A stretch of 32,000 bases of DNA from Pyrodictium occultum (GTDB taxonomy: Archaea; Thermoproteota; Thermoprotei_A; Sulfolobales; Pyrodictiaceae), in contig NZ_LNTB01000001.1 in assembly GCF_001462395.1 (NCBI RefSeq), forward strand, positions 420,001 through 452,000, in the 5' to 3' direction. Below the pieces are notes generated by a model. The model worked only from the letters and a program-made list of their open reading frames with translations. It was not told the DNA's origin and did no database searches. Shown in pieces: positions 17,477 to 31,276 of the stretch (the stretch's first letter is position 1; each line of letters starts with the position of its first letter). A program made the position numbers and the translations under genes.

Positions 17477-17491
17477 GGAGGGGGTAGAGGG

Positions 17492-18115
17492 TTGGCTGGG
17501 AGCCTCAACATCCTTGTAAGCGGCGTGGGGGGCCAGGGCCTCATAACGCTCTCGACCATAATAGCGAGGGCGGCGCTGCGCCGCGGCGTGGACGCGCTGG
17601 TGGCGGAGACCCATGGGCTCAGCCAGAGGGGTGGCATAGTGACTGTCCACGTTAGGCTGGGCGACGTGGACGCCCCCCTGGTGCCCCGGGGAGCCGCGGA
17701 CGCGGTACTCTCCATGGAGCTTATAGAGGCTGTTAGGAGCCTAGCCTACCTCCGCCCCGGGGGCACGGTGGTGGTCAACGACTACCTCGTGCCCCCGCCG
17801 CTGCCCGGCGTAGAGGTGCCCCCGGCCCAGAGGCTCATAGAGGAGCTGGGGAGGAGGGCCGGCAGGCTGGTAGTCGTGCCGGCCACCAGCGAGGCCCTGA
17901 GGCTCGGCGACTCGAGGGTTGCCAACATGGTCCTCCTGGGTGCTGCCCTCGAGGCCGGGGTGTTCGAGGGCTATATTGACGAGGCAGCCGTGGAGGAGGC
18001 TATACGCGAGGCCTGGCCGCGGGCGGCGGAGATCAACCTGGCGGCCCTCCGAGCCGGCCGCGAGGCCGCGAGGAAGGCGCTGGAGGCGGTGGCCGCGGCC
18101 CCGAGAAGCCCCTAG
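17492..18115 (+). CDS. iorB: Indolepyruvate:ferredoxin oxidoreductase, beta subunit
   Basis: 207 aa. NILVSGVGGQGLITLSTIIARAA...ETHGLSQRGGIVTVHVRLGD is the gamma-domain pattern of 2-oxoacid:ferredoxin oxidoreductases. It lies directly after iorA. Confidence 0.9.
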   Translation: MAGSLNILVSGVGGQGLITLSTIIARAALRRGVDALVAETHGLSQRGGIVTVHVRLGDVDAPLVPRGAADAVLSMELIEAVRSLAYLRPGGTVVVNDYLVPPPLPGVEVPPAQRLIEELGRRAGRLVVVPATSEALRLGDSRVANMVLLGAALEAGVFEGYIDEAAVEEAIREAWPRAAEINLAALRAGREAARKALEAVAAAPRSP

Positions 18116-18147: not shown

Positions 18148-18801
18148 CTACTCCACTGGCACGAGCCGCCCAGACTCTATCCTGTATACCCTGAAGCCGG
18201 GGAGTGCATCCGCCACACCTCTCTGAGGAGAGGTGGCTACCACTGCGACTCCGCGGCGTAGCAGGCTCTCTAGAAGGCTGCTCAGCGACTCCGACGCCTC
18301 ATCGTCTAGGCCCGTGAAGGGCTCGTCTATGACCAGCGCCCTGGGCCTATGGAGCAGCGCGCGGGCTATGTTAGCCCTCTTCTTCCACCCGAAGCTCAGC
18401 TCCCCGGCCCTGGTGTCGAGATAGCGGTGGAGCCCGAGCACCTCTACCACCTCGTCGCCCTCCGGCTCGTAGCCCTCAACGCCGTAGAGCCTGGCGTAGT
18501 ACTCGAGGTTCTCCCGGACGGTGAGCTCGTCGTAGAGGAGGCTATGGTGGAGCACGACCCCGACGAAGCGTCTAGCGCCCGGGAGGCTGGGCGGCTGCCC
18601 CTCCACCAGTACCCTGCCGCGGCTCGGCCTGGTCAGCCCGACGAGTATACGTAGGAGCGTCGTCTTGCCAGACCCGTTGGGCCCGACTATCAGCACTCCC
18701 CCGCCCGCCCCGGCGCAGAGGTTCACCCCCCTCAGCACCCAGCCACGGCTCCAGTCATAGCGTTTCCAGACGTCTATGGCTTCCAGCACACAGGCTTGCA
18801 A
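18148..18801 (-). CDS. ccmA: ABC transporter ATP-binding protein, CcmA-like by context (haem export/release ATPase)
   Basis: 217 aa with Walker A GPNGSGKTT, a degenerate signature LSFGWKKR and Walker B LVIDEPFTGLD. The ABC ATPase call is secure. The CcmA assignment rests on the neighbouring ccmB/C/E/F genes. Confidence 0.7.
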   Translation of the reverse strand: MQACVLEAIDVWKRYDWSRGWVLRGVNLCAGAGGGVLIVGPNGSGKTTLLRILVGLTRPSRGRVLVEGQPPSLPGARRFVGVVLHHSLLYDELTVRENLEYYARLYGVEGYEPEGDEVVEVLGLHRYLDTRAGELSFGWKKRANIARALLHRPRALVIDEPFTGLDDEASESLSSLLESLLRRGVAVVATSPQRGVADALPGFRVYRIESGRLVPVE

Positions 18802-18843
18802 GGGGGATCCGCGCCCTCACGCACTCTAGGCCTGGGAGAAATG

Positions 18844-18863
18844 GGCCCGGGAGCTCCCGGGCC
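18844..18863. promoter_or_regulatory. Perfect 20-bp palindrome GGCCCGGGAGCTCCCGGGCC between an AT-rich box (18864..18875) and the ccmA start
   Basis: Read directly. On the minus strand the order is: stop of the monohaem cytochrome gene, CTTTTTAAATAA (T-run and TATA-like box), the palindrome, then ccmA ATG 18801. Confidence 0.4.
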
Positions 18864-18895
18864 TTATTTAAAAAGCCTTAAGTTCAGAAGGAGGC

Positions 18896-19528
18896 CTAGC
18901 GCCGGGCCCGGAGGAGAGCGACGGCGAGAGCCACTATGGCTATGACGAGCACTGCTATGCCTATCGGCAGGGCGGTGTTCACGAGTCCCTTGCTCTGCTG
19001 GGATGGATTAGGCGTGGCCACGCTGGGTAACGTGGTGTAGCTCGGGGTGGTCGCGGCTGTAGTGGTAGCGGCGGGTGCCTGCGTAGAGGTCGTAGTCGTT
19101 GCACTAGCGGTTGCTGTAGTAGATGTGGCAGAGGCCGTCGATATAGTAGTCGTGGCGGCCTGGCCCGCGCCAGCGCCCCTGGCGCTGTTGAATACGTGCT
19201 CGAAGTATGCCTTAAGCTCTGGAGTCATGCCCGGCTTCATGCTCATCAGCTGGTCCCATGTCTTAGCATTCTGGAACATCTTGAAGTGAGGGGCCTCAGA
19301 CTCTACAGCCTTGTCGAGGCTAGGGTACGTGGAGGCCCATTCTCTAATCTTCTTGACAACGCCCTCAAAGGTGGGTGCGAGCCCGCCGTTATGACAGCTG
19401 CTGCAGCCTTTAGATGCGAACTCCTGCTTAGCCTGCTGATCCGAGAGAACGCCAGCGGCGAAAACGGGTGAGGCAACGCCTATCAGTATTACCGCGACGG
19501 CTAGGGCTAGAGGGATAGCACGCCTCAT
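18896..19528 (-). CDS. Monohaem c-type cytochrome with signal peptide, Thr/Ala/Ser-rich linker and C-terminal membrane anchor
   Basis: 210 aa. The signal is MRRAIPLALAVAVILIGVASPVFAAG. There is a single CSSCH motif and candidate Met ligands (MSMKPGM). A linker of about 60 aa (ATTTISTASATSTTATASATTTTSTQAPAATTTAATTPSYTT) is followed by LPIGIAVLVIAIVALAVALLRARR. Confidence 0.8.
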   Translation of the reverse strand: MRRAIPLALAVAVILIGVASPVFAAGVLSDQQAKQEFASKGCSSCHNGGLAPTFEGVVKKIREWASTYPSLDKAVESEAPHFKMFQNAKTWDQLMSMKPGMTPELKAYFEHVFNSARGAGAGQAATTTISTASATSTTATASATTTTSTQAPAATTTAATTPSYTTLPSVATPNPSQQSKGLVNTALPIGIAVLVIAIVALAVALLRARR

Positions 19529-19565
19529 ACCCTCATACCCCGTGCTTCACCTATGGGTTTCCTAT

Positions 19566-19580
19566 GTGTATTTAATACTC
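19566..19580 (-). promoter_or_regulatory. Candidate BRE/TATA (minus strand GAGTATTAAATACAC) for the monohaem cytochrome gene
   Basis: This is the AT-rich box in the 169-nt gap after nrfD. Its centre is 46 nt upstream of ATG 19528. It is near-identical to the box upstream of ccmC. Confidence 0.45.
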
Positions 19581-19697
19581 TTGTACTCACTCTTTGTACC
19601 CACTTCACCCTTTGGGGGCAGAGCATACGGATGCGGGGGCATTGAAAAATCCATGAACTTTGCCGAGCCGGTAAACCGTCCCAGAGCAGGGGCCGGC

Positions 19698-20945
19698 CTA
19701 AGATGTCTTAAAGTAGTGGGCCATCACAGCCTTGAGGGTTGGCCTGGCGAGCAGCAGGTATACTAGTATGCCGAGGGCGTGCACGCCAATGGTTATACCT
19801 ATCTCTATCGGCGTCGGGTAGTATGGCCTCACCTCGCCCAGGGTGCTGGGCTCGAAGGCTGGCAGCACTATCCTCATAGTCTTCTCGGCCACGACAGCTA
19901 CTATCGTGAGCGATGCTATGAATAATATGCCCCTCTTAGTGCTGTGGATGCGCGGCAACAGGCTTAGTATGACAGCGGCGGCGCCTAGAGATATCCAGAG
20001 CCATGCCAGCACCGACACGTACGGCAGATGCTGCCCCAGGAACATCGTTGCTGCCTGTGCCTTCTTGAGGGGCTCTGTGGTGTACCAGAATATCTCCTGC
20101 GCATCGCTGAGGGTGAAGTAGAGGCCTACTACTAGGCCGCCCACTATAACGTAGAGCGTCCTTCTGTAGACCTGGACATCTATCTTGAACCCATCCACAT
20201 ATCTTTCAGCTATGTAGAGGGCTACCAGCAGTATGGCTGGACCGCTGGCGAACGCCGTGGCAACGTACTCGGGGGCCAACAGTGGACTGTTCCATATAGG
20301 CCTCGCTGTTAACGCCTGGGAGATGAATCCGGTTACCGTGTGTATACCTATGGCGAAGGGCGCTGCTATTGTTATGAAGGGCACTATGAACTTCTTGGGT
20401 AGCGGCTTGTCCTGGCGGTAGTAGTGGACCGATGCTAGCACCCCTATCAGGTTTATGGTGAGGTAGCCAGTTATCACTATGAAGTCCCAGTCGAGCATCG
20501 AGTGTAGGTTGGGCAGCTGGGGCATCAGTATGAGCGCGCGTATTGGCCTGCCGAGATCGACGACGATAAGCATTAGCACGGTTATGAGTGCTGCTACGGC
20601 TTGTACCTCACTTAACGGGGCTATCTTCTTGAACTCCTCGTCCCCGAACACATATGCAGCCAGGCCGAAGGCTATGCCGGCGGCGGCTACACCGACCCAG
20701 AATATGAAGAAGGATATGTAGAGCCCCCATGCAACGCTGTCATTCATTGCCGTTAGTATAAGCCCGCCCTTGTCGCTTCCAAGGAATATGGGGGCGTGCT
20801 GCACGAATATCCAGAGGTAGAGGCCGTAGATGGCTACCAGCAGCAGCCCCAGCCCCGCTGCATAGTAGCGCGGGTTGTCCGAGACCAGGGCCTCTCTCAC
20901 AATGTACTTTATTGTACCCCAGAGACTAGGGCTCTCCCTGCTCAC
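19698..20945 (-). CDS. NrfD/PsrC-family integral membrane quinone-interacting subunit (long, about 10-helix type as in ActC/DsrP/HmeC)
   Basis: 415 aa and highly hydrophobic. Family-like segments are present: SVAWGLYISFFIFWVGVAAAG, VVDLGRPIRAL, HSMLDWDF, PIWNSPLLAPEYVATAFASGPA. It overlaps the Fe-S subunit gene by 4 nt. Confidence 0.85.
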   Translation of the reverse strand: MSRESPSLWGTIKYIVREALVSDNPRYYAAGLGLLLVAIYGLYLWIFVQHAPIFLGSDKGGLILTAMNDSVAWGLYISFFIFWVGVAAAGIAFGLAAYVFGDEEFKKIAPLSEVQAVAALITVLMLIVVDLGRPIRALILMPQLPNLHSMLDWDFIVITGYLTINLIGVLASVHYYRQDKPLPKKFIVPFITIAAPFAIGIHTVTGFISQALTARPIWNSPLLAPEYVATAFASGPAILLVALYIAERYVDGFKIDVQVYRRTLYVIVGGLVVGLYFTLSDAQEIFWYTTEPLKKAQAATMFLGQHLPYVSVLAWLWISLGAAAVILSLLPRIHSTKRGILFIASLTIVAVVAEKTMRIVLPAFEPSTLGEVRPYYPTPIEIGITIGVHALGILVYLLLARPTLKAVMAHYFKTS

Positions 20946-21985
20946 GCGTGGCCACCCCCTACCTGCCCCTCGGCTGCAGCTTGCTTGCGTGGAGGCGTGC
21001 GGGCTGGGCCGAAGAAGTAGAAGAACCTGGGCTTGGTACCCGCCTCGGGCTTAAGCACGAAGGCGCCGTACTCCTCCAACACCCTTCGTATTGGGCTATT
21101 GGGGTCGTTGAGGTCTCCGAACACCCTGGCGCCGACGGGGCAGACTTCGACGCACGCCGGCACCCCGCCGTCACGGGTGCGCTGGATGCACCAGGTGCAC
21201 TTCTCCATCACGTGGGGCTGCCTCGGTATATTGCCGAGTATATGCATATTGGGGTTTAGCTCCGTCACCGGTATGTAGGGCTTGGCCCAGTTGAAGTGGC
21301 GGGCGCCGTAGGGACAGGCGACCATACAGTACCTGCAGCCTATACAGCGGTCGTAGTCGACCACCACTATGCCGTCGGGCTCCTTCCAGGTGGCCCGCAC
21401 CGGGCACACCATGACGCACGGCGGGTCCTCGCAGTGCATGCAGGCTATCGGCACGTACACCTTGTCCGGCTTCGGCGCATCGTTATAGTGCATGTTGGCC
21501 TCCGTTATCTCCATTTCCTTCCGGGGCATCTCGACTACTTTTATCCACTCTATGTGCAGGTTCCTAGCCTGGTTGTTCTCCATAACGCAGGCGTAGGCGC
21601 AGCGGCGGCAGCCAATACACTTATTGACGTCGAGCGCCATTGCGTAGCGTACTCCCTTCCGGGGCCCGGTGGCCTTAACCCTTATCATCGCGCAGCGTTT
21701 CCGCGCCTCCCTGCAAGCATCGGAGCTCTCACCCCTCGCCCTGCATATCTTCTCAGCCTCCGCGCTGCACCACCTCTTTATCTTGACCTCCTTCTCTCGC
21801 GCCCTCCTCTCCAGGGGCGAGCCTGCCTCGGCAGCCTCGGCGACCAGGTCCTCGATTTTGACCGGCACCAGTATCTTCCTTAGGTGGGACCTGTCGACAG
21901 CTATGAACGATACAGCTGAGGCGCCGGCCGCGAGCGCAGCCGCCTTGAGGAAATCCCTTCTAGACCTATCCACCCCGCCCGACAA
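20942..21985 (-). CDS. Tat-exported four-cluster [4Fe-4S] ferredoxin-type subunit (NrfC/PsrB/DsrO/ActB2-like)
   Basis: 347 aa with a twin-arginine signal (SRRDFLKAAALAAGASA). Four cluster motifs are present: CIGCRRCAYAC, CMHCEDPPCVMVCP, CIGCRYCMVACP and CTWCIQR...ACVEVCP. An extra N-terminal Cys-rich helical segment is also present. Confidence 0.9.
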   Translation of the reverse strand: MSGGVDRSRRDFLKAAALAAGASAVSFIAVDRSHLRKILVPVKIEDLVAEAAEAGSPLERRAREKEVKIKRWCSAEAEKICRARGESSDACREARKRCAMIRVKATGPRKGVRYAMALDVNKCIGCRRCAYACVMENNQARNLHIEWIKVVEMPRKEMEITEANMHYNDAPKPDKVYVPIACMHCEDPPCVMVCPVRATWKEPDGIVVVDYDRCIGCRYCMVACPYGARHFNWAKPYIPVTELNPNMHILGNIPRQPHVMEKCTWCIQRTRDGGVPACVEVCPVGARVFGDLNDPNSPIRRVLEEYGAFVLKPEAGTKPRFFYFFGPARTPPRKQAAAEGQVGGGHA

Positions 21986-22003
21986 GCCGAGACACCCCGG
22001 GAT

Positions 22004-22735
22004 TCAGGCTCCAGAGGAGTTCTTACGGGAGCGCTCATAGGGCAGAACGAGTGCTCCCAGGACGAGGATCAGGCCCCCTACAACCGCCGCTATGTTGCCA
22101 TAGGTGACGCTGCTCTCATTGGGGGGCGGCGGCCTAAAGGAAGGCTCCGGGAGTATGTTGAGGGCCTTGAGCACCGGGTTGTGGGGGTCGTGGCACTCGA
22201 CGCAGGCCCTCGCAGGCACCGTCTTCAGGTCCTTGTAGCTGGGGCAGATGTGGAAGTTGTATATGACGCCCTTGTAGCCCTTAACCTTAACCACCTTGCC
22301 GCCCTGGCATACGAACGTCTTATTGCCGTGGACCAAGTTGATGTAGTCCCTGTACTCGCGTGGATGGCAGACGGCGCAGACCTTGTTGGTCTCCATCAGC
22401 TTGTCCCGGCTATGGGGCCCAGGTATGTAGACCTTCGCACCCCCCACAAGGTTTATCATTGTAGGCGGCCGGTGGCAGTTGGAGCATACAAGGCCACGAT
22501 GGGCGCCCTTTGTAAGGTTTATACCGTGGAAGGGCACCACCTTACGGTTGCCCGGCAAGTTCATGGCAGCATGGCACTTTGTGCATGGGTATATCTGGTA
22601 GAGCTGCTGGCCAGCTTGCTCGGCGCCGGCCCTGGCTGCAAGGGCTAGCGACAACACGACCATGGACAACAGCATGAGGATGGCTACAGCCCTAGAGCCA
22701 CGGAGCCACCCGTTTCTCAACGCATTCACCTCCAT
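22004..22735 (-). CDS. Tetrahaem c-type cytochrome with N-terminal signal/anchor and C-terminal transmembrane helix
   Basis: 243 aa with CxxCH motifs at residues 51 (CTKCH), 84 (CSNCH), 120 (CAVCH) and 178 (CVECH), plus many distal His candidates. The C-terminal segment is IAAVVGGLILVLGALVLPYERSRK. Confidence 0.85.
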   Translation of the reverse strand: MEVNALRNGWLRGSRAVAILMLLSMVVLSLALAARAGAEQAGQQLYQIYPCTKCHAAMNLPGNRKVVPFHGINLTKGAHRGLVCSNCHRPPTMINLVGGAKVYIPGPHSRDKLMETNKVCAVCHPREYRDYINLVHGNKTFVCQGGKVVKVKGYKGVIYNFHICPSYKDLKTVPARACVECHDPHNPVLKALNILPEPSFRPPPPNESSVTYGNIAAVVGGLILVLGALVLPYERSRKNSSGA

Positions 22736-22777
22736 GATCTAGCCGCTACGCCAGACGCGCTCCGCCAGGCATTCTGC

Positions 22778-22791
22778 CATGATTAAATCTG
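22778..22791 (-). promoter_or_regulatory. Candidate TATA box (minus strand GCAGATTTAATCAT) for the tetrahaem-FeS-NrfD operon
   Basis: The AT-rich box has its centre 49 nt upstream of ATG 22735, the same spacing as the other island promoters. Confidence 0.35.
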
Positions 22792-23028
22792 CTAGGGCCG
22801 AGGCTTACAATAAGAATTAGCCCGAAAGAATTCCCTCCATACACGCCTGCCACAGGATGATAGAAGTTCCCGGAGGATCCTCCGCGGGTCCGCCAGGCCC
22901 CAGATGCGGAGAGGACCGGGGCTCTACGCGACCCAGCATCAGGAGACGTGCTTAGAGGAGGGGGACCAAGGGTTGCGTGAAAACTCTGAGAAGGGCTCGA
23001 GGATGTAACTGGATGGCGCCGCGCTGGT

Positions 23029-23577
23029 CTAGCCCTCAACCCTCCCAGCGGGCGCCTTATAGCTCTCGTGACAGCCCTCGAATATCTTGGACACTAGGAG
23101 CACACTATAGGGGCCGGCTACCCTGGAGCCTGTGGAGGGATCCAGGAGGACCGCCTCCAGGGCTGGGTCGTAGGTACCCTCTACCACTATCCTCGAGGAG
23201 ACTGCAGGGCTGCCGCCATAGAGGGTCTTGAAGGTCGTTGCACTGTATAGTGCTAGGATCTTTGTATGGCCATCCTGCCCCTCTAGTATGAACACTGCAT
23301 AGCTATCGTCGCTGCCGAAGCGGGGGCCGCTTACCCTGCTAGCCACGGCGTAGGAGCCATACCCCTTGACTAGGAATAGCGTGTCTCCCACCCGGAGCAG
23401 GTAGGTGCCGCTCAGGCTGACCGGCCGCCCCTTGACCGTAACGTAGGCCTTGTACTCGAGGTTCTTTAGACTCGATACATCCCGGTAGTCGGAGGATTTT
23501 ATGCCTACAAGCCCTATGGCGAAGAGAAGCGCGAACAAAACCCCTGCTAAGACGATGTATTTACCTGCTTTAACCAT
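23029..23577 (-). CDS. ccmE: Haem chaperone CcmE, archaeal/Desulfovibrio-type with CxxxY in place of HxxxY
   Basis: 182 aa with an N-terminal anchor (YIVLAGVLFALLFAIGLVGI), a beta-rich body and a C-terminal VSKIFEGCHESYKAP. The CHESY motif is encoded at 23059..23073, and I verified it codon by codon. This parallels the canonical ...AKHDENY.P. The gene lies directly downstream of ccmC. Confidence 0.75.
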   Translation of the reverse strand: MVKAGKYIVLAGVLFALLFAIGLVGIKSSDYRDVSSLKNLEYKAYVTVKGRPVSLSGTYLLRVGDTLFLVKGYGSYAVASRVSGPRFGSDDSYAVFILEGQDGHTKILALYSATTFKTLYGGSPAVSSRIVVEGTYDPALEAVLLDPSTGSRVAGPYSVLLVSKIFEGCHESYKAPAGRVEG

Positions 23578-23621
23578 ACAGACCCCATGCTGGGGGCTGG
23601 GCGACTGCGTTAGTATAAGAC

Positions 23622-24653
23622 TTACCTCGTAGAGTTACGGAGCCTAGATATATAGAGCATCAGTAGGCCTAGTAGAACCATGTACATAGCCGCGTTGAGC
23701 GCCACACTCCAGTGTATTACTATCTCCACGCTTCCTCCATTAAGCCTCACTATATGACCGATTATGCTGGGCTTGCCATCAACCACCTGCACGTGGAGCG
23801 GCTTGGCAAGCTTCACGTAGCCGCTCCCTGAGAGGTTGAGCGCCACCACGGAGCCGTTAACAAGCCTGGCACCTAGTACACGCTCCACGCCACCGGCGAG
23901 GTAGGGGGAGGCCACTATAAAGCCTATCACCATGCCAAGCATCACAAGGCCGGCGCCTACGTAGCGAAGACTGCGCGTAAACGGGATCTCCTCCCCCCGG
24001 AGGCGCTCCGCCAGTGTATAGCTCAGCAGCACCGCTATCACAGAGGCCATGAGGACCCTGGCTATAAATACTCTCAGCACGGCTGGCTGCTCCATGAAAT
24101 CCCTGAAGTTCTCCACGGTGGGGTGCAGGCTCGAGGCGGCTACACGGGGAGCCAGGAAGCTTATAGGCACCATGGAGTAGGCGGCGACAGCGTAGACTGC
24201 GCTTAGCCTGCTAGCCCTATCGGGGTCAGGTATACTGGAGCGGAGCACGAAGTAGAGGATGTATGCGAGGAGTAGGAGGAGCACACCGGTCTCCCTTGGA
24301 TCCCAGGACCAGGCTGCGCCCCAGGACTCGCTGGCCCACGCCATGCCGCTGACGAGCGTGAACACTGCGTAGAGGGATCCGGTAAGCACGAAGGCTCTCA
24401 CGTAGGCGTCTAGCTTCTCCTTCCCGCGTGTCAGGTAGAGTATGGCCGAGGCGAATGCTAGCGTGTAGAGAAGGTAGCTGCCCCAGGCCATGGGTATGTG
24501 TATGTAGATGTTCAGGTAGGCTGTGGGCGAGCCCAGGCTGACCCGCAGCGGGTAGGGGGCATGGTACACAGCATAGATCACGAGGCCAGCGTCTACGAGG
24601 GCTAGCAGCGCTAGGAGCGGCGCCGCGAGCCTTGCGAAGCCTCGTGGAGGCAT
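23622..24653 (-). CDS. ccmC: Haem exporter/haem-handling protein CcmC with a C-terminal extension of about 120 aa
   Basis: 343 aa. The first His loop is NIYIHIPMAW, the WWD motif is WGAAWSWDPRETG and the second His loop is SSLHPT. After the sixth helix come an extra helix, a beta-rich segment of about 60 aa and a final helix. Confidence 0.9.
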   Translation of the reverse strand: MPPRGFARLAAPLLALLALVDAGLVIYAVYHAPYPLRVSLGSPTAYLNIYIHIPMAWGSYLLYTLAFASAILYLTRGKEKLDAYVRAFVLTGSLYAVFTLVSGMAWASESWGAAWSWDPRETGVLLLLLAYILYFVLRSSIPDPDRASRLSAVYAVAAYSMVPISFLAPRVAASSLHPTVENFRDFMEQPAVLRVFIARVLMASVIAVLLSYTLAERLRGEEIPFTRSLRYVGAGLVMLGMVIGFIVASPYLAGGVERVLGARLVNGSVVALNLSGSGYVKLAKPLHVQVVDGKPSIIGHIVRLNGGSVEIVIHWSVALNAAMYMVLLGLLMLYISRLRNSTR

Positions 24654-24693
24654 AGCTGCTCCTTCACCAAGGGGTAATCGATGCGGTAAAAGG

Positions 24694-24706
24694 GTATTTA
24701 ATGCTC
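24694..24706 (-). promoter_or_regulatory. Candidate BRE/TATA (minus strand GAGCATTAAATAC) for ccmC-ccmE
   Basis: This is the AT-rich box in the 80-nt ccmF-ccmC gap. Its centre is 47 nt upstream of ATG 24653. It matches the box at 19568..19580 at 12 of 13 positions. Confidence 0.45.
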
Positions 24707-24733
24707 AAGCCCGACATTTCCGCAGGCACCTTG

Positions 24734-27700
24734 TCACCTGCCACCCTCCCTGTAGGCTGCGACTCTCGAGGCCGCGGCATAGACGGCTGCTAGCGCCATG
24801 ACCAGGGGGCCGAGCCATACAAGCCTGACGCCGGGTATCACCTTGACCTCTACGTGGAGGCCCTCCCTGGCTATAGTCGAGTTCGCAGGATTGAAGTTCT
24901 CGGCTAGAAGGTAGAGGTCCATAAGCGTGGCCTCGAGCTGCTGCCTCTCACTATTATCCACCACGCCGTCCCGGAGCACGTCAATATTGTAGCCAGCAGC
25001 CATGAGGGCTGCCAGCGCTAGGCGCTTCTCCGGCGGCAGCTGCTTAAACGCCTCGTGCAGGTAGTATATGAGCAGCTCGTGGTAAGCCGCCCTACCGCCA
25101 ATGTAGCCCTCCACTACAGGCGGGCTCACCACTACATAGACGTCGCCGAGCCCGTTAGCTATGGGTATGACTTTTGATACTAGGCCGTGTATACCCTGAA
25201 CCTCGCCGTAGGCCTCGAAGCGGATGCGCACCCTTACATCCCTGTGGGAGCTGCCCTGGTCGAGCCTCAGCTTCACATCAAGCCAGGCTGTCTCCGGCAC
25301 GAGCTTCGGGGCGGCGACATAGCCCATGCAGCTGTGGACTCCTCTCAGGCATTTTGGCGAGCTTATTACCGCCTCCAGCCGGCTCGTGTTCGTCAGTATG
25401 CTGTAGATCGATGAGTGCTCTATCAGCCGGATAACCCTGCGCATTGTAGGGTCTGCGGAGGCTACTATGTAGGCGCTGACCGCCTGCGGCAGCTGTGAGG
25501 GCACCTCGATGCCGCCGCCCCCCGGCGCCGCTATCGAGCCGTAGATGTAGAGGGCTGCGTCGCTCCCGCTAATGGTCCTCCCCTTCAGGTCTAGTGGTCT
25601 GCCCTGGCCCGCGAAGAGCAGGGCTTCGGAGAGCAGGGCGGCGCGGCTCACCGTTATGTTTACCCCGTCGACAGCTATGCTGAGGGGCTTGCCGGGCTCT
25701 ATGCCTATGAACCGGTGTATGCCTATTTTCTGCTCCAGTGGGGCCTTCCTAGGCAGCACTATGGCCAGGTTACCGGCTACCAGCAGCAGGTTTACACTCA
25801 TTATCCCCGTGTTGGGATTCATGTTCAGATTGATGTTTATTGATGCATTGCTGAGTATTATCTCCACGGGCTCGCCGCCAGCAAGTACTACTGTAGTATT
25901 TCTCTCTAGGTCGAAGAGCTTGAGCGTGGCATTGGCCTTTACTACGAGGGTCTTGTTGAGGGCCAGCGGGCTCTTTCTGGCAATGCCGAGAAGCCAATCT
26001 ATTGTCTTGTTCCTGGCTACCAGTTGCTTGCCCTGGTTGTAGAGGTTGAGGAATCTCACTATATCGCTCTTTATGTAGTTTATCGTGCTCCAGGCTAGCA
26101 TATAGGTGCTGCTCCTGCCCACGTAGTCTGTGTATATGTCTACGGTGGAGTTGCTTATCCCGTAGCTATAGCCCTCGAAGACTAGCCTAGCTCCTCCGGG
26201 CAGCTCTATCGAGTCGCCGGGCTTCAGCTGGTAGTACCAGGTGTACTTGGTGTTGAAGGCGTAGGTGCCGCTGAGCAGCACACCTATAACGGTGACGGCG
26301 AGGCCCAGGTGGAGCAGGGACACGCTGGTCAGCCGGTCTGCCAGCAGCCTCCGGGGACCGAGGCGCAGCTTGTAGGCGAGGTAGGCTAGCACGGAGGCGG
26401 CGGCCACGAGGGCCCATGGGAGGCCGAAGGCCATCATCGCGTTTGTCGCAAGCGGGCTGAGCGGGGCTAGGAGGTAGGTGCCGCGGTAGGCGGCCAGCCC
26501 GAAGGCTGTAGCCACTATAGCGGTCGATGCGGTGAGGGCGGCGTAGCCGCGCCAGCCCAGCCTGTCGCCGGTGAAGGCTAGCGGGATCGCCGCGAGGAGG
26601 ACGACCAGCATCGGGTATAGTACTGGGTGGAAGTAGCGGATGCCGCTCTCCATCTGCGGCACGCTTACCTCACGGCCGATGGCCGTCAGTATTGAGGGTA
26701 GGAAGAGGGTGCCGTAGACGTAGACCGCCGCGGCGGCGAGCACGAGGCCGGCTACCAGCAGCCCCACAGTGTAGGGCTGGCGGCGCCTGAGCACGGCAGC
26801 AGCCTCTGAGAGCGCCTCCCCGCCCCTTCTGGCGGCGAGGTAGACTGCGTAGGCTGCGGGGGTCAGGCCCGCGGCCAGCAGCACTAGAGCGCCAGCACTG
26901 GGGGCTGCGAAGCTGTGGAGCGGGCTGAGCCCTGTACGCGTGACATACATAGCCATGAACACTGAGCTCAGCAGCCAGGCGGAGTTGAACGCTGAGAGGC
27001 TTGGCAGGGTCATCAGTAGGTGGGGCAGCACTGTTGCCACAAGCCATACCATGAGCTCGCTCGTCTCTACAGGGTCCCAGGCCCAGTAGCCTCCCCACCC
27101 GAAGGTCTCGTAGCTCCAGTAGCCGCCAAGCATTATACCAATGGTTAACAGTGCCCAGCCTAGCTCATACACCACCAGGCAGCGGCGCCTCTCCCCCGTC
27201 AGCATCGCGGCCGCGGCCACTGCGAGGAGGGCATAGCCGCTGAAGGTGCTGAGTGGGTGAGGATAGAGCCAGGGGCTCTTCAGCAACGGGTTGAGCCCGG
27301 CGCCGCTGGCAGGGTGCCCCTGCATAGGTGTGAAGGCATCGTTGAGGAACGCGGCCGCCAGCCCGGCCAGCACTATGCTGCCCAAGAGCGCCTGGAAGCT
27401 GCGGCGCCTATGCCTCTGGAGCAGGTAGAGGCCGGCGAGAGAAGCCAGCACGGTGAAGAGGTAGAGGCTGCCTCCGCCGCCAGCCCAGGAGGAGGCTATC
27501 CTCATCCAGGCCGGCAGCCCTGGACTAGTCTCCCAGAACACCTCCTTCAAGCTGTAGTCGAGGCGGACAAAAGCAGAGACGTATAGCAGCCACCCCAGCA
27601 CCGCTGCCAGGAGGCCGTAGCGCAGCAGCCTGGAGCCGTCCCGCCGGCCTAGGGCAGCCGCCACCCCGGCGGCTACGAGGACCCCGGAGGCCAAGGGTAG

Positions 27701-27754
27701 CACGCCAGTATAGTGGAGCGGAAGCGCCATCTTACCCAACCTCTTCCCATCCAC
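24734..27754 (-). CDS. ccmF: Cytochrome c-type biogenesis protein CcmF (haem lyase component), unusually long
   Basis: 1006 aa. The polytopic N-terminal two thirds carry the WWD motif WGGYWAWDPVETSELMVW and flanking His residues. Canonical landmarks for the start and end of the outer-face domain are present: KPGDSIELPGGARLVFEG and EVKVIPGVRLVWLGPLVMALAAV. A large inserted region lies between them. The start could be the internal MALPLHY. Confidence 0.9.
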   Translation of the reverse strand: MDGKRLGKMALPLHYTGVLPLASGVLVAAGVAAALGRRDGSRLLRYGLLAAVLGWLLYVSAFVRLDYSLKEVFWETSPGLPAWMRIASSWAGGGGSLYLFTVLASLAGLYLLQRHRRRSFQALLGSIVLAGLAAAFLNDAFTPMQGHPASGAGLNPLLKSPWLYPHPLSTFSGYALLAVAAAAMLTGERRRCLVVYELGWALLTIGIMLGGYWSYETFGWGGYWAWDPVETSELMVWLVATVLPHLLMTLPSLSAFNSAWLLSSVFMAMYVTRTGLSPLHSFAAPSAGALVLLAAGLTPAAYAVYLAARRGGEALSEAAAVLRRRQPYTVGLLVAGLVLAAAAVYVYGTLFLPSILTAIGREVSVPQMESGIRYFHPVLYPMLVVLLAAIPLAFTGDRLGWRGYAALTASTAIVATAFGLAAYRGTYLLAPLSPLATNAMMAFGLPWALVAAASVLAYLAYKLRLGPRRLLADRLTSVSLLHLGLAVTVIGVLLSGTYAFNTKYTWYYQLKPGDSIELPGGARLVFEGYSYGISNSTVDIYTDYVGRSSTYMLAWSTINYIKSDIVRFLNLYNQGKQLVARNKTIDWLLGIARKSPLALNKTLVVKANATLKLFDLERNTTVVLAGGEPVEIILSNASININLNMNPNTGIMSVNLLLVAGNLAIVLPRKAPLEQKIGIHRFIGIEPGKPLSIAVDGVNITVSRAALLSEALLFAGQGRPLDLKGRTISGSDAALYIYGSIAAPGGGGIEVPSQLPQAVSAYIVASADPTMRRVIRLIEHSSIYSILTNTSRLEAVISSPKCLRGVHSCMGYVAAPKLVPETAWLDVKLRLDQGSSHRDVRVRIRFEAYGEVQGIHGLVSKVIPIANGLGDVYVVVSPPVVEGYIGGRAAYHELLIYYLHEAFKQLPPEKRLALAALMAAGYNIDVLRDGVVDNSERQQLEATLMDLYLLAENFNPANSTIAREGLHVEVKVIPGVRLVWLGPLVMALAAVYAAASRVAAYREGGR

Positions 27755-27778
27755 GGCCGAGTGGAGCTATACGCGGGG

Positions 27779-28861
27779 CTAGACGAGCTGGAGGGAGTAT
27801 AGCAGGAGGTAGACGCCGGCGGCTAAAAGCACCGCGCCACCAACACGGCTTAGCAGGTCATACCTGGCCATGATCCTGCTGACAACGCTGCCGCCCACAC
27901 GGCTCACCGCGTAGACAGCCGCCAGCGGGATGCTGATACCGGCCGCGAAGCTGCCCGCCACCAGGAGCCCCGAGGCCAGGTTCCCGGAGCTGGCCACGAG
28001 CAGCAAGGCGCCGACCACTATAGGCAGGTTGCACTGGACCGCCAGGAAGCCGTAGACCGTGCAGAACCCCGCCAACCCGCCGCGGCGAGTGCTTACAAGC
28101 CCCTCAAGCTCCACCGGGACGCCGAGGAGGCTAGCCACCCCGGCGGCCACGACCGCGGCTGCCACAACCGGGACTAGTATGCTCTGCAGCGAGGAGGCCA
28201 GGCTAGAGGCCAGGGCGAACACGAGCCCTATGGCTATAACGCCGGCGAAGGACGCGGCGCCGCAGGCCACGCAGCCTGAGGCGCTGACCCTTCTACCGGA
28301 GGCACCGACTACACTGACGTAGGTTGCCAAGAGCGGCAGCACGCAGGGGGAGAAGGCGACCACCACGCTGGCGGCGAGCGCCGCCAACGCGCTCACCGCG
28401 CTAGCCCCCGCAGTGCCGGCCTCCTCGAGAGGGCTCGAGGCGCCACGCACCGGGGCGGCGGTAGTGGTGTTAGCTAGCGCCCTGCGGCCCACTATCCTAG
28501 GGGCCGCCTTGCCCTCGAGTATCGCCGAGACGTAGTCGAGGAAGTAGGCTGCCCTGTCAATCTCGTAGGATGACAGGTCCGGGAGGTACTTCCTCATAGA
28601 CGCTACCGCCGCCATTAATTCTCCATAGCTGCCGTAGAGCTTGCGGAGCGTCATATTCTTCTCCAGAGCCTCCTTCATCTTCTCCGCCAGCAGGTCGGGC
28701 TGCCCGCTACGCGAGGACAGCCAGGCCTCCAGAGACGCCTTATCAAGACCCTTCACCTCCCCGTGGCAGGCCGAGCACCGCTCGTTGAACACGCGCAGCC
28801 CTCCTGAGCAAGCTTCTCTGGCTCCGATACCGTGGCGGCGCCCACGGAGAAGAGAGCCCAT
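27779..28861 (-). CDS. ccdA: Monohaem cytochrome c domain fused to a CcdA/DsbD-type thiol-disulfide transporter membrane core
   Basis: 360 aa as listed. The cytochrome c domain reads LRVFNERCSACHG ... SMRKYLPDLSSYEIDRAAYFLDYV. An Ala/Thr linker follows, then six hydrophobic helices carrying the two conserved Cys motifs FSPCVLPLL and VQCNLP. The 5' 109 nt overlap the thioredoxin ORF; see findings. Confidence 0.85.
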   Translation of the reverse strand: MGSLLRGRRHGIGAREACSGGLRVFNERCSACHGEVKGLDKASLEAWLSSRSGQPDLLAEKMKEALEKNMTLRKLYGSYGELMAAVASMRKYLPDLSSYEIDRAAYFLDYVSAILEGKAAPRIVGRRALANTTTAAPVRGASSPLEEAGTAGASAVSALAALAASVVVAFSPCVLPLLATYVSVVGASGRRVSASGCVACGAASFAGVIAIGLVFALASSLASSLQSILVPVVAAAVVAAGVASLLGVPVELEGLVSTRRGGLAGFCTVYGFLAVQCNLPIVVGALLLVASSGNLASGLLVAGSFAAGISIPLAAVYAVSRVGGSVVSRIMARYDLLSRVGGAVLLAAGVYLLLYSLQLV

Positions 28862-29334
28862 TCCAGCATAGCATTCGTTATGTTGCTGCCCCCGAAGGCG
28901 CCCACGTGCCTGGCCACAGGCCTACCGTTAACAAACACTATGAATGTCGGCGTGTCGGTCACATGGTACCGCATAAACACGTCCTGGGTGGCGGGGCTGA
29001 ACATGACGTGGAGGAAGCGTATGGGGAGCCTATCGCTCTCGTGCTCCAGCACCGCCCAGTAGGGGTACATCCTCTTACATACAGGGCACGTGGGTGACTC
29101 GAACATAACCGCTACAGGCTTTGATGACCCCAGCACAACTCTGTCGAACACACTGGAGCTTCTTATCGAGTACCCGCTTACGCTTAGATAGTAGTTAGCC
29201 ACGTGCATCTCATGCTCAATCAGCGCTGCCGTGAACGAGGCGGCGACTATAACCACGGAAGCCAGCAGCAGGCCGGCCCTCTTAGCCCGCTGGAAGCCGC
29301 GCAGGTCCAGACGCATCCTACGTGGACTTCTCAT
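28753..29334 (-). CDS. Membrane-anchored thioredoxin-fold thiol:disulfide oxidoreductase (CcmG/ResA-like role by context)
   Basis: 193 aa as listed. A basic N-terminus is followed by the anchor AGLLLASVVIVAASFTAALI. KPVAVMFESPTCPVCKRMYPYW carries CPVC at 29077..29088, and ...TPTFIVFVNGRPV is a Trx-fold cis-Pro region. The last 14 residues (CACSTSGARPATGR) look like out-of-frame read-through. Confidence 0.85.
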   Translation of the reverse strand: MRSPRRMRLDLRGFQRAKRAGLLLASVVIVAASFTAALIEHEMHVANYYLSVSGYSIRSSSVFDRVVLGSSKPVAVMFESPTCPVCKRMYPYWAVLEHESDRLPIRFLHVMFSPATQDVFMRYHVTDTPTFIVFVNGRPVARHVGAFGGSNITNAMLEWALFSVGAATVSEPEKLAQEGCACSTSGARPATGR

Positions 29335-29400
29335 ACCCGCTGCACCAGTAGCCCATACCCTCTAGGCCAACGATTGTGGCAAACCCATGGCTTCGTAGAA

Positions 29401-29430
29401 ATAGTCACAGCTAATTTACCTTGTGACTAT
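29401..29430. promoter_or_regulatory. 9-bp perfect inverted repeat ATAGTCACA / TGTGACTAT flanking a 12-bp AT-rich spacer (GCTAATTTACCT)
   Basis: Read directly. It lies in the 116-nt gap between the ccmB stop (29451) and the thioredoxin start (29334). It is either an operator around a TATA-like box or an RNA hairpin followed by TTTCT on the minus strand. Confidence 0.4.
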
Positions 29431-29450
29431 ACCTTTCGCCCCGGCTAGCC

Positions 29451-30122
29451 CTACACCTCCTCGAGCACATAGCGGGAGAGCCACACAGTCAGGCCGGCGA
29501 AGAGGAGAGCTGCAGCCGCGAGCCAGCCCACCTCTAGGAGCGAGACAGGGGAGCCGGCCAGCGCCGCCACAATGCTCGGCGCGGCTGACTGTATGTAGGG
29601 CAGCACGAGCACGAGCACCATAACCGGCATGAGCACTGCGCGGGCCTCGCTGAACACGAGTATCGCGGAGGTGAAGCTGGACACAGCGGCCAGGTACATG
29701 CTGGAGACCAGGGCTAGGAGCAGCACGACAAGCCTTAGAACGCTCACAATCTGCGCGAAGAAGCCCATTGACGCTAGGAACACCAGCGTCTGTAGAAGTA
29801 TCACAGCCATGCTGTAGATGAACTTCGCCATAAATACAGCCTCCGCGCCTATGGGGGCTAGGCGGAGCCCATCAAGGGTCCCCCGGTCGGCCTCACGCAC
29901 AAAGCTCGACAAGCTTCCGAACACCGCGAGAAACACTAGGACCAGCGTCAAGGCTATACTCGTGGCAGCCGCGTTGACGCCGGCAGCGCTCCTCATAACG
30001 TAGGCTGAGAGCAGGCCTGCAGAGACGGAGAAAACCAGCATAGAACCCGCCTCAACGCGCCGACGTATGTCGAGCAGTACATCCCGGTGTACTATGGCTA
30101 CTACAGCGCCCAGCACGCCCAT
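29451..30122 (-). CDS. ccmB: Haem exporter membrane protein CcmB
   Basis: 223 aa with six hydrophobic helices. HRDVLLDIRRR near the N-terminus and FVREADRGTLDGLRLAPI match the conserved CcmB loop (F..E...GTLE.L...P). Confidence 0.8.
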   Translation of the reverse strand: MGVLGAVVAIVHRDVLLDIRRRVEAGSMLVFSVSAGLLSAYVMRSAAGVNAAATSIALTLVLVFLAVFGSLSSFVREADRGTLDGLRLAPIGAEAVFMAKFIYSMAVILLQTLVFLASMGFFAQIVSVLRLVVLLLALVSSMYLAAVSSFTSAILVFSEARAVLMPVMVLVLVLPYIQSAAPSIVAALAGSPVSLLEVGWLAAAALLFAGLTVWLSRYVLEEV

Positions 30123-30169
30123 GAGCCCCCGAGGGGCTCTAGAGCACCGAACCCTTCTCCCTTCTTAGC

Positions 30170-30894
30170 CTAGCCGCCCCCAACCACCGGTTCTTCGACA
30201 CTCTCTCCGACACCCGCCTTCCCGCGCTTTAACCCGTGCTTGGAGCCTAGACGCTTCTCTACCACGTTCATCTGGTGCTCTCCCTGCAGCATCCTGCCTA
30301 CTAGGTATTGCGGAAGCTCGTGGCGTACGAAGGCGTCTATTATCTTTGATTCAGCTCTCCGGAGGAGCTCAGCCAGCGTTGACACCGAGAGCCCAAGGCT
30401 CTCCGCGAGCTGCTTGAGGCTTATCCTACGGGGAAGCTATAGTAGCCCATGAAGTAGGCGTATATTATCGCGAGCTCCTGCTTCTCCGTAAGCATATAGG
30501 CGTACTCGTCTATGCTATGACTGTGGATTATCTTGCAGCCCCATCTACGTAGCTCCTCGAGAGCGCTGCTGCGGGCTATTATGAACTCATACAGGATGCC
30601 TAGAGGCATGAGAACCACCGTCTTAGACATGGCCCCTATAGGGGCCGCTATTAGCGGGCACGCACTGCCCTCCGGCTCTGCCGCGCGTTTACTACAGTAG
30701 CTCCTCTTGGAGACGAGTATGCGGAGAATCCTGTTAAACTTAAACTTATTAGAATAGATCCGTAAATCCAGTGCCTCCGTCAGAGCCTTCATCGAGTTCA
30801 TGATGCCCGCCGAGCGAGGGGACGGAACTAATAGCCTTGAGCAATGGGCAGTCAATGTTACGTATACAATATATAACGAGCGGCTTGTTAGCAT
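30170..30894 (-). pseudogene. HTH_10 (Bat-type) family transcriptional regulator interrupted by a 1-nt frame disruption
   Basis: ORF 30421..30894 ends ...LTEKQELAIIYAYFMGYYSFPVG*. My translation of the -1 frame continues RRISLKQLAESLGLSVSTLAELLRRAESKIIDAFV, joining ORF 30170..30385. Together these give the complete HTH_10 motif (LT..Q...L..A...GY...PR...L.ELAE.LG.S..T..E.LRRAE.K). The break is at the C4 run (G4 on the + strand, 30430..30433). GC is lower than in the neighbouring genes. Confidence 0.7.
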
Positions 30895-30930
30895 GCATCC
30901 CTTAGCACCCCGGGAGCTCTAATACGGGCA

Positions 30931-31020: not shown

Positions 31021-31276
31021 ACTACCAGCTCCACCCGCTTAGTCGCGTGTTATCGAGCATCGTAATTATAAAATATTACTGATGAGTGGCGTCGAGCTAT
31101 AGCGCTTGCCAGCGACACAGGCTACTAGGACCGTCTAGCTAGGGGTAGGCGAGAAAGCACAACGCCCAGTGCTACGCCCAGAGCGCCTGATACGATCCAT
31201 CCTGGTGCACTGGCGGGGGCGTGAGAGTGCGTTAGGACAGTTGCCCCGTGCGGGTTCTGGCTCCTCTCCGGGTTCT

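Follow-up and report, generated by a model that had tools for sequence, protein, structure and literature searches.

The c-type cytochrome cluster of Pyrodictium occultum: a probable System I* maturation set with an inserted, putative quinone/cytochrome c module

Layout and gene content of the cluster

The window analysed here is a stretch of 32,000 nucleotides (nt) from Pyrodictium occultum (contig NZ_LNTB01000001.1, positions 420,001 to 452,000 of the forward strand), in which positions 18148-30894 hold an unbroken run of long open reading frames (ORFs), all on the minus strand. An earlier sequence-only reading had described this run as a single-strand island, and it correctly recognised a c-type cytochrome cluster. 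We consider it probable, with good confidence, that the region is the organism’s c-type cytochrome cluster and that it consists of a cytochrome c maturation (Ccm) set of the System I* type and an inserted quinone/cytochrome c module. System I* is reportedly the variant Ccm system of archaea and Desulfovibrio set out by Allen et al. in 2006, and it is the CcmH-less variant with a CxxxY-type CcmE to which the sequence-only reading had already likened the locus. Its CcmABCEF core has been described and genetically tested in Methanosarcina acetivorans (PMC3601427, PMC9084895).

The sequence-only reading had counted thirteen genes. The real content is 11, since the thioredoxin and cytochrome c-ccdA ORFs belong to one gene and two HTH ORFs to another. 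The features are listed below in the order of the genes on the minus strand, with lengths in amino acids (aa), transmembrane helices as TM, and the main evidence for each.

30170-30894, minus strand: HTH_10-family regulator gene, damaged (partial Pfam HTH_10 match)
29451-30122, minus strand: ccmB, ABC-2 type permease, 223 aa, about 6 TM (Pfam ABC2_membrane, 29.6 bits)
27779-29334, minus strand: tripartite thiol reductase (thioredoxin, cytochrome c-like, CcdA), one gene (34 full-length homologues)
24734-27754, minus strand: ccmF, long form, 1006 aa (Pfam Cytochrom_C_asm and CcmF_C)
23622-24653, minus strand: ccmC, long form, 343 aa (Pfam Cytochrom_C_asm)
23029-23577, minus strand: ccmE, divergent CxxxY type, 182 aa (hhalign, OB-fold model)
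22736-23028, minus strand: spacer between ccmE and the module, 293 nt (four-locus alignment)
22004-22735, minus strand: membrane-anchored tetrahaem cytochrome c, 243 aa (four CxxCH, N- and C-terminal TM)
20942-21985, minus strand: Tat-exported four-cluster ferredoxin subunit, DsrO/PsrB/ActB2-like, 347 aa (Pfam, NCBIfam, PDB)
19698-20945, minus strand: NrfD-family membrane quinone-interacting subunit, DsrP/ActC-like, 415 aa, about 10 TM (Pfam NrfD)
18896-19528, minus strand: monohaem cytochrome c, 210 aa (CSSCH motif)
18148-18801, minus strand: ccmA-like ABC ATPase, 217 aa (Pfam ABC_tran)

Six CxxCH haem-binding motifs occur in three products, as first counted: four in the tetrahaem cytochrome (22004-22735), one in the monohaem cytochrome (18896-19528) and one in the cytochrome c-ccdA part of the reductase (27779-28861). 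A six-frame scan of the 32-kb window, covering open segments of at least 80 aa, found no other CxxCH, so the concentration is not due to chance; all such motifs of the window lie in the cluster, which we count in favour of maturation genes standing together with clients. The ccmA-like ATPase is separated from ccmB by 10.65 kb holding the module and the other ccm genes, in agreement with the distance of about 10.6 kb, with structural genes in between, given earlier. The absence of ccmD-, ccmH- or ccmI-like ORFs was borne out as well: none of the cluster products matched a CcmD, CcmH or CcmI model in Pfam or NCBIfam. Only two intergenic gaps, of 293 nt and 169 nt, are large enough for a small gene, and comparison of the 293-nt gap, the one gap checked, with Pyrodictium abyssi gave no conserved small ORF. 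A 71-aa P. abyssi gene and a 97-aa window ORF in this gap were considered as CcmD-like candidates and rejected, as they are unconserved and look like translated non-coding sequence. The gene cluster runs on past the end of the window.

The maturation genes

The tripartite thiol reductase was previously read as a free thioredoxin and a separate cytochrome c-CcdA protein, a division that results from a 1-nt deletion. The two ORFs, 28753-29334 and 27779-28861, share 109 nt. Contig L088, from a strain 98-99% identical (98 mismatches in 13 kb), served as the comparison sequence; at the junction, position 28801, the window reads CCC where L088 reads CCCC (plus strand) and is thus 1 nt short, and the strain of L088 and L089 has a single 519-aa protein instead of the two ORFs. 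The thioredoxin frame ends ...PEKLAQEG and resumes in the other frame as LRVFNERCSACHG; joined, the two pieces form a typical cytochrome c N-terminal helix followed by its haem motif. With the conceptual fusion as query, 34 full-length single proteins of 477-587 aa were found (89-100% of the query covered), including the 519-aa protein at 98% identity, PABY_02440 of P. abyssi and a protein of Hyperthermus butylicus. Taken alone, the cytochrome c-ccdA ORF shows neither a signal peptide nor a TM helix before its CxxCH, and its haem site would therefore not be exportable.

Relative to L088, 1-nt indels lie at 28801, 29442, 30433, 31122, 31365 and 31797. In every case the base is missing from the window, at a C/G site, which suggests a systematic homopolymer error; four of the six fall in runs of at least three, one is intergenic, and two break a neighbouring upstream gene for a 495-aa protein. 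Such 1-nt deletions are a signature of assembly error, with real mutation also possible, and false splits may affect other ORFs of the genome record too. The deletion at 30433, in a GGGGG run, breaks the HTH_10 regulator gene, which relative to L088 and L089, two independent assemblies of close relatives, is also without 161 nt of its N-terminal half at 30742/30763 (L088 7138-7320), a total loss of 162 nt or 54 codons. The 161-nt loss is either a real structural difference or a misassembly, and an internal ATG could still yield an N-terminally shortened regulator. The intact orthologue in L088 has 296 aa, and the true ATG lies about 30 nt beyond 30894, near 30925. Intact orthologues of 266-296 aa adjoin ccm genes in L088, L090, L091 and L092, and the orthologue in L093 has 232 aa and lies on the opposite strand. 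The breaks in the reductase gene and in the regulator are thus lesions of the assembly or the strain rather than features of the system, including the disrupted regulator that had been listed as part of its design.

The restored reductase consists of an N-terminal TM anchor, a thioredoxin domain (CPVC), a class-I cytochrome c-like domain (CSACH and a Met) and a 6-TM CcdA domain. In 17 aligned homologues the CPxC, the CxxCH, Met247 and both CcdA cysteines are invariant, as are Trp and Tyr residues of the middle domain, whose Met stands 56 residues past the CxxCH; in 38 sequences the CxxCH, Met and Trp of this domain are invariant. The thioredoxin domain passes the generic Pfam model Thioredoxin (PF00085, E 3.2e-11). 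It matched no CcmG/DsbE model in Pfam or NCBIfam, and Redoxin was matched weakly in 2 of the 17 members; with its anchor and CPVC it may work like CcmG without belonging to the CcmG/DsbE family. The middle domain aligns with the whole of PF13442 below the cut-off (E 5.7e-5; 23.8 bits, cut-off 27), as found in 13 of 15 members; its profile matches in the PDB are nearly all cytochromes c, covering the helix and motif only, and AlphaFold2 models it as a compact helical unit (predicted local distance difference test, pLDDT, 96-98).

The CcdA assignment is upheld by a profile search in which the sole PDB match was the CcdA of Thermus thermophilus (5vkv, E 7.5e-7), aligned over its full length with both cysteines in register. 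These cysteines, in ‘SPC’ and ‘QC’, are invariant and lie in TM1 and TM4 of six TM helices. The Pfam DsbD_TM match is weak (4 of 17 members), and Foldseek relates the domain to 5vkv with a probability of 0.72. When the haem domain and CcdA were modelled together, unrelated helical transporters dominated the Foldseek matches, and CcdA alone was recognised. The topology predicted from sequence has the N-terminal TM placing the thioredoxin and haem domains outside, so that the chain enters CcdA from the outside. Such an outside-in topology is expected from the DsbD family.

No thioredoxin-cytochrome c-CcdA fusion was found described in the searchable literature, and fragments of the fusion protein gave no match in the searched part of the Kletzin 2015 supplement. 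As a separate observation, the haem domain of the fusion (28400-28810) and the monohaem cytochrome of the gene cluster (18896-19528; Kletzin cluster 30, see below) were aligned by hhalign with a probability of 32% (E 5e-4), the CxxCH, a Trp and the Met of an ‘SM’ pair coinciding; the two may be distant paralogues.

CcmF matches Pfam PF01578 (Cytochrom_C_asm) and PF16327 (CcmF_C) and the NCBIfam CcmF/NrfE model (E 2.4e-38), and its core aligns with PDB 6zmq over aa 39-529 only (E 1.2e-21). The WWD motif and four histidines are kept in six orthologues, in the conserved strings ‘YPHPL’, ‘WGGYWAWDPVE’, ‘LPHLL’, ‘PLHSFA’ and ‘LLHLG’ (two periplasmic and two TM histidines). About 450 extracytoplasmic residues (aa 520-975) are inserted between the last two TM helices, and no Pfam or PDB match was obtained for this insert. 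The insert is rare, occurring in 53 of 1.84 billion representative proteins in a full scan, and the proteins that bear it are mostly about 850-1065 aa long with the insert at the same position. Its cysteines C802 and C809 were considered as a mimic of the CcmH CxxC and rejected, the spacing being CxxxxxxC and the pair missing in L093. A contig search with CcmF was saturated by the universal WGGYWAWD pattern and gave only relatives of about 30% identity and no Pyrodictium genome. Pyrodictiaceae can have a second ccmF, at only about 30% identity to the cluster gene, as in a metagenome-assembled genome of the family (L001); in Pyrodictium delaneyi a second ccmF, Pdsh_01745, is tagged near the genes for 12- and 8-haem cytochromes, Pdsh_01720 and Pdsh_01730 (PMC5556600). 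The product of the second ccmF may be a lyase that serves other multihaem clients specifically.

CcmC matches PF01578 (E 1.1e-24) and, over aa 44-165, Escherichia coli CcmC (7f02_C, E 3.5e-9), and keeps ‘WGAAWSWDPRE’ together with histidines in ‘YIHIPMAW’ and ‘SLHPT’. It extends about 100 aa beyond the E. coli protein through an added TM helix, then a beta-rich loop of some 60 aa, and a last TM helix, and a length of 340-376 aa is kept in all orthologues. The fusion gene adjoins the long ccmF in all five loci examined, and the two genes are comparably rare in databases. Published accounts of archaeal System I list CcmABCEF only, with CcmG and CcdA separate (PMC9084895, PMC4429474, PMC3601427), and no description of a long CcmF, a long CcmC or a reductase with a haem domain was found in the searchable literature. 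The extra domains pointed out by the sequence-only reading are therefore real in CcmF, CcmC and the reductase. Its further statement that the combination of fusions and extensions had no place in described systems holds for these three features as far as that literature goes, and fails in part where frameshifts had led to a misreading of the fusions.

CcmE has an N-terminal TM helix (aa 8-26), an OB-fold barrel into which hairpins are inserted, and a flexible tail that carries C169-HES-Y173 within the C-terminal sequence EGCHESYK. It has four close homologues, one of them P. occultum CF15_02425 at 99% identity; an exact-sequence look-up of the window protein returned no record. A profile built with the Pyrodictiaceae orthologues was compared by hhalign with canonical CcmEs from fetched bacterial and archaeal loci, giving a full-length alignment (probability 91%, E 1.1e-6) that places CHESY on CPSKY. 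Because the match is full length with CxxxY aligned on CxxxY, the 182-aa product is read as a divergent System I* CcmE. The AlphaFold2 model (predicted template modelling score, pTM, 0.71) is an OB-fold barrel, and the 50 Foldseek matches listed for it are only OB-fold proteins, all weak (E 5e-3 or worse). The profile comparison and the model together uphold the assignment made at first sight. The Hyperthermus orthologue, of 136 aa, ends in CHSGY. In the annotation of P. delaneyi, CcmE was reported as not found (PMC5556600), and the protein described here is very probably the missing one.

CcmB passes the ABC2_membrane model, and one of its orthologues (alignment A6) matches Pfam CcmB at 3.8e-9; no PDB match was obtained for CcmB by sequence or profile. 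Orthologues of CcmA with 50-80% identity lie inside the ccm clusters of L090-L093. Both genes are present in every ccm locus compared, and synteny kept in five loci supports the predicted CcmA and CcmB assignments.

The cluster resembles System I* in its core of CcmC, E and F with the predicted CcmA and B, in a CxxxY CcmE with Cys instead of His, in the absence of CcmH, CcmI and CcmD from its products and gaps, in the presence of a thioredoxin and CcdA reductant path, and in CcmF and CcmC proteins that keep the WWD motif and the haem-ligating histidines. On the other hand, its CcmE has CHESY or CHSGY where CPSKY is the common motif, and with inserts of about 45 aa it is too divergent for Pfam; its CcmF is a single chain of about 1000 aa that includes the long insert, whereas that of Methanosarcina is split into F1 and F2; its CcmC is about 100 aa longer; its thioredoxin and CcdA are fused around a cytochrome c-like domain; and its genes are clustered, while those of Methanosarcina are scattered. 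With DsbD, ScsB and CcdA the reductase shares two essential cysteines in TM1 and TM4, and, as DsbD does, it carries extracytoplasmic redox domains in covalent linkage. Unlike DsbD, it has a core of 6 TM (the CcdA type) rather than 8, and both soluble domains are N-terminal; its CxxCH/Met cytochrome c-like domain was not found in the DsbD, ScsB and CcdA literature searched.

The respiratory module and its surroundings

Between ccmE and ccmA lie the genes of a tetrahaem cytochrome c, a Tat-exported Fe-S protein, a 10-TM NrfD protein and a monohaem cytochrome c. The tetrahaem cytochrome is 100% identical to a P. occultum protein and has homologues in Pyrfu_1102 and a Hyperthermus butylicus protein; in Kletzin 2015, cluster 06 unites Igni_0530, Pyrfu_1102 and Hbut_1391. 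The Fe-S subunit has the twin-arginine motif SRRDFLK, matches Pfam Fer4_11 and TAT_signal, and finds in the PDB the polysulfide reductase subunit PsrB (2vpw_B, E 2.3e-40) and ActB of alternative complex III (ACIII; 6f0k_B, E 1.1e-33), the latter only over its C-terminal residues 797-1027. Past its signal peptide this subunit has a charged insert of some 80 aa (aa 30-110; 21660-21900) with four cysteines (CSAEAEKIC...DAC...KRC), which precedes the parts aligned with the NCBIfam DsrO model (from aa 103) and with PsrB (from aa 113). The NrfD subunit matches Pfam NrfD (E 1e-32), and its only sequence relatives in the PDB are the ActC chains of ACIII (6f0k_C, 6btm_C, 6lod_C). The monohaem cytochrome has a signal or anchor, a Thr/Ser/Ala-rich linker, a C-terminal TM helix and a CSSCH motif, and shares 47% identity with Hbut_1395 and 31% with the haem domain of Aeropyrum pernix APE_1719.1. 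Cluster 30 of Kletzin 2015 groups APE_1719.1, Hbut_1395 and Pyrfu_1105; the bc complex purified from A. pernix contains APE_1719.1 as its haem c subunit (PMC4429474).

No molybdopterin subunit was found in or beside the module in the window, L088, L090 or L094. Because none is present in any locus, the module is read as an electron-transfer complex between the quinone pool and cytochrome c, and its make-up suggests that it is most likely a small functional analogue of ACIII or DsrJOP. It resembles ACIII (ActABCDEF; 6f0k, 6btm, 6lod) in having a TM-anchored multihaem cytochrome, a Tat Fe-S protein, a 10-TM NrfD-type protein and an anchored monohaem cytochrome. It differs in having four haems rather than five in the multihaem subunit, no molybdopterin-like ActB1 domain, one NrfD-type subunit rather than two (no ActF) and no ActD; moreover, Pyrodictium is a strict anaerobe and the window holds no oxidase partner. 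It is thus not an ACIII. With DsrJOP it shares DsrO and DsrP as the top curated models and an adjoining gene for a small periplasmic multihaem cytochrome. In contrast to DsrMKJOP, the cluster has no DsrM or DsrK, and the cytochrome is tetrahaem with two TM anchors where DsrJ is trihaem; with the DsrO and DsrP models both below cut-off, the module does not count as DsrMKJOP, nor as PsrABC, no molybdopterin PsrA being encoded with it.

The module itself is already catalogued, as Igni_0528-0530 and in clusters 06 and 30 of Kletzin 2015. Direct homologues are Igni_0528-0530, Hbut_1391-1395 and Pyrfu_1102-1105, which, unlike the module, are not embedded in a ccm cluster. For Ignicoccus, the genome paper lists the NrfD, Fe-S and tetrahaem genes only (PMC2614490); the Pyrolobus cluster 30 protein is dihaem, whereas that of the cluster is monohaem.

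Within Pyrodictium the whole arrangement is kept. L088 and P. abyssi (L090) carry these 11 genes in an unchanged order, and the wider run, with two further genes upstream, reads octahaem HAO-like cytochrome, 495-520-aa protein, HTH_10, ccmB, fusion, ccmF, ccmC, ccmE, module and ccmA, and the locus tags of P. delaneyi (PMC5556600) point to the same order there. Hyperthermus butylicus and L092 have a compact set (HTH_10, fusion, ccmF, ccmA, ccmC, ccmE, ccmB) without the module; in Hyperthermus the module would stand beside an HAO-like gene, judging by the tags Hbut_1389 to Hbut_1395, and in Pyrolobus fumarii it stands alone, apart from the ccm genes. Since the two are unlinked in these three, the wrapping of the module by ccm genes is a genus-level rearrangement, and an obligatory linkage is ruled out. 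The proposal that maturation and client genes form one co-inherited unit accordingly holds within Pyrodictium and breaks down in Hyperthermus, L092 and Pyrolobus.

The gaps of the cluster contain several candidate promoter elements. When four loci were aligned, the 3' half of the 293-nt spacer was found to hold a block, conserved throughout Pyrodictium and including a TATA-like element, which is probably the module’s own promoter. The TATA-like string ATTAAATAC occurs in both the ccmF-ccmC gap (24654-24733) and the gap between nrfD and the monohaem gene (19529-19697), a repetition that hints at internal promoters. Between the monohaem gene and ccmA, directly past the TATA-like string TTTTTAAATAA, lies a perfect 20-nt palindrome, GGCCCGGGAGCTCCCGGGCC (18844-18863), which could serve as a binding site for a regulator or as a hairpin at the transcript end. 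TATA-like strings in several gaps together with the conserved block suggest several promoters rather than one operon, and the one-strand cluster is probably split into several transcription units.

Around the cluster, further genes were observed. Two genes stand immediately upstream on the same strand (31122-32000 and beyond; L088 2575-6786). The product of one is an exported protein of 495 aa with an HExxH motif, and the 3' part of this gene is broken in the window by two homopolymer deletions. The other, outside the window, specifies an HAO-like octahaem cytochrome c of 856 aa that has a C-terminal anchor and a coiled-coil tail and is of the Kletzin cluster 04 type, like Hbut_1389. A similar gene pair comes after ccmB in L092. 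The octahaem cytochrome is likely a further client and possibly a redox partner of the module, and the module, earlier proposed as the likely client, is consequently not the sole likely one. On the other side, convergent with ccmA on the plus strand (15509-18115), are two 2-oxoacid:ferredoxin oxidoreductase genes, for a 655-aa subunit with thiamine pyrophosphate (TPP) and Fer4 domains and a 207-aa POR-gamma-like subunit. Their domain make-up is that of the indolepyruvate:ferredoxin oxidoreductase IorAB, and L088 and P. abyssi have the same neighbour.

Proposed function and alternative readings

In the reading we prefer, seven genes would constitute the archaeal System I* maturation pathway, with the HTH_10 regulator gene preceding the set. 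By analogy with their families, the CcmA/CcmB ABC module and CcmC would load haem onto Cys169 of CcmE, and CcmF, with its WWD motif and four histidines, would pass it to the CxxCH sites of exported apocytochromes. The fusion would carry cytoplasmic reducing power through the two CcdA cysteines to the external CPVC thioredoxin domain, which would keep apocytochrome cysteines reduced. The module would act as a quinol:cytochrome c (or cytochrome c:quinone) complex tying the quinone pool to periplasmic cytochromes, and its periplasmic partners might include the HAO-like octahaem cytochrome encoded just upstream.

Several points weigh against this reading. The hidden Markov model searches upheld the Ccm assignments in part: CcmC and CcmF pass Pfam, but CcmB scores 24.1 against a Pfam CcmB cut-off of 24.9, CcmA reaches 119.3 bits with its best NCBIfam model (TIGR01189, ccmA; cut-off 131.6), and CcmE had no match in Pfam, NCBIfam or PDB sequence searches, nor did a canonical CcmE appear among the Foldseek matches listed for its model. 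In the module, the best NCBIfam models are likewise below cut-off, DsrO with 198.8 bits (cut-off 200) for the Fe-S subunit and DsrP with 211.7 bits (cut-off 350) for the NrfD subunit, and the homologues Igni_0528-0530 were annotated in 2008 by Podar et al. as ‘bacterial type polysulfide reductase’ (PMC2614490). No expression or haem-staining data for P. occultum were found in the reachable literature, and the indels could be real mutations, since L088 is a different strain.

The last point leads to the proposal that the frameshifts are genuine, leaving a pseudogenised thiol reductase and a crippled regulator that a strict anaerobe living in sulfide tolerates. In M. acetivorans, single and double deletions of ccmG and ccdA left holocytochrome at normal amounts under reducing conditions (PMC9084895), the loss of 161 nt from the regulator is no homopolymer artefact, and the absence of an intact P. 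occultum fusion among the homologue matches suggests a public record without one. We hold this proposal to be doubtful, as six of six indels being deletions at C/G sites of the window fits systematic sequencing error better than selection-blind mutation, and the fusion gene is strongly conserved in all relatives. It is very unlikely that the thirteen genes stand as first read, with a free thioredoxin, a separate cytochrome c-CcdA, a degenerate regulator and fusions that replace CcmD/H/I in an obligatory unit. As deposited, the sequence does show two overlapping ORFs and a regulator in two pieces, and the layout is kept in P. abyssi and the 98-99% identical strain; but every full-length homologue is one protein, the cytochrome c-CcdA ORF alone is without an export signal, the breaks fall at homopolymer deletions, and module and ccm genes are unlinked in Hyperthermus, L092 and Pyrolobus, points that largely refute it.

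Two further alternatives concern what the parts do. The CxxCH of the fusion might never receive haem and serve as a dithiol relay or an apocytochrome mimic in place of the CcmH CxxC, an idea favoured by the absence of CcmH from the cluster, by the position of the domain between two thiol-redox domains and by a cytochrome c similarity below the Pfam cut-off. We regard it as unlikely: the His of the CxxCH and the Met 56 residues on are invariant in 38 sequences, the PF13442 match spans the whole model including the Met region, and the compact helical model has high pLDDT, so that His/Met haem ligation is expected rather than a pure thiol relay. Still less probable is a Psr/Sre-type reductase of sulfur, polysulfide or another chalcogen, terminal in the H2:S0 respiration of Pyrodictium. 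The Fe-S subunit does have PsrB as its best PDB match, the name given in the genome paper would fit, and PMC4429474 cites the finding of haem c in the sulfur-reducing complex of Pyrodictium. Yet a molybdopterin catalytic subunit is missing in or beside the module in every locus, the NrfD subunit matched ActC chains and not PsrC by sequence, and PsrABC has no two c-type cytochromes.

Most of the island is ordinary, in that its families, its variant pathway and its respiratory module are already catalogued. The tripartite reductase with a haem motif, the long CcmF and the long CcmC together appear as a lineage-restricted variant that was not found described in the searchable literature. A tentative extension, to which we give a low probability, is that a distinct sub-type of System I operates in Pyrodictiaceae and their relatives, with built-in modules replacing CcmH, CcmI and CcmD. 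The DsbD-like thioredoxin-haem c-CcdA protein might, through a bound haem or its CxxCH site, help to prepare the apocytochrome or haem; the CcmF insert of about 450 aa might handle the apocytochrome or CcmE; and the extra helices and beta domain of CcmC might take the role of CcmD in the release of holo-CcmE. Gupta et al. (2022) left open whether archaea replaced CcmD, CcmH and CcmI non-orthologously or do without them (PMC9084895).

For this question the Pyrodictiaceae cluster offers three conserved candidate replacement parts; heterologous expression has reportedly been done for the Desulfovibrio system (Goddard et al. 2010). The analysis also sets right two mis-called genes and flags homopolymer errors of the assembly, and it puts forward an identity for the CcmE reported missing in P. 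delaneyi. Finally, the cytochrome c of cluster 30, an ‘orphan’ in Hyperthermus and Pyrolobus, is placed in a four-subunit NrfD-type complex.

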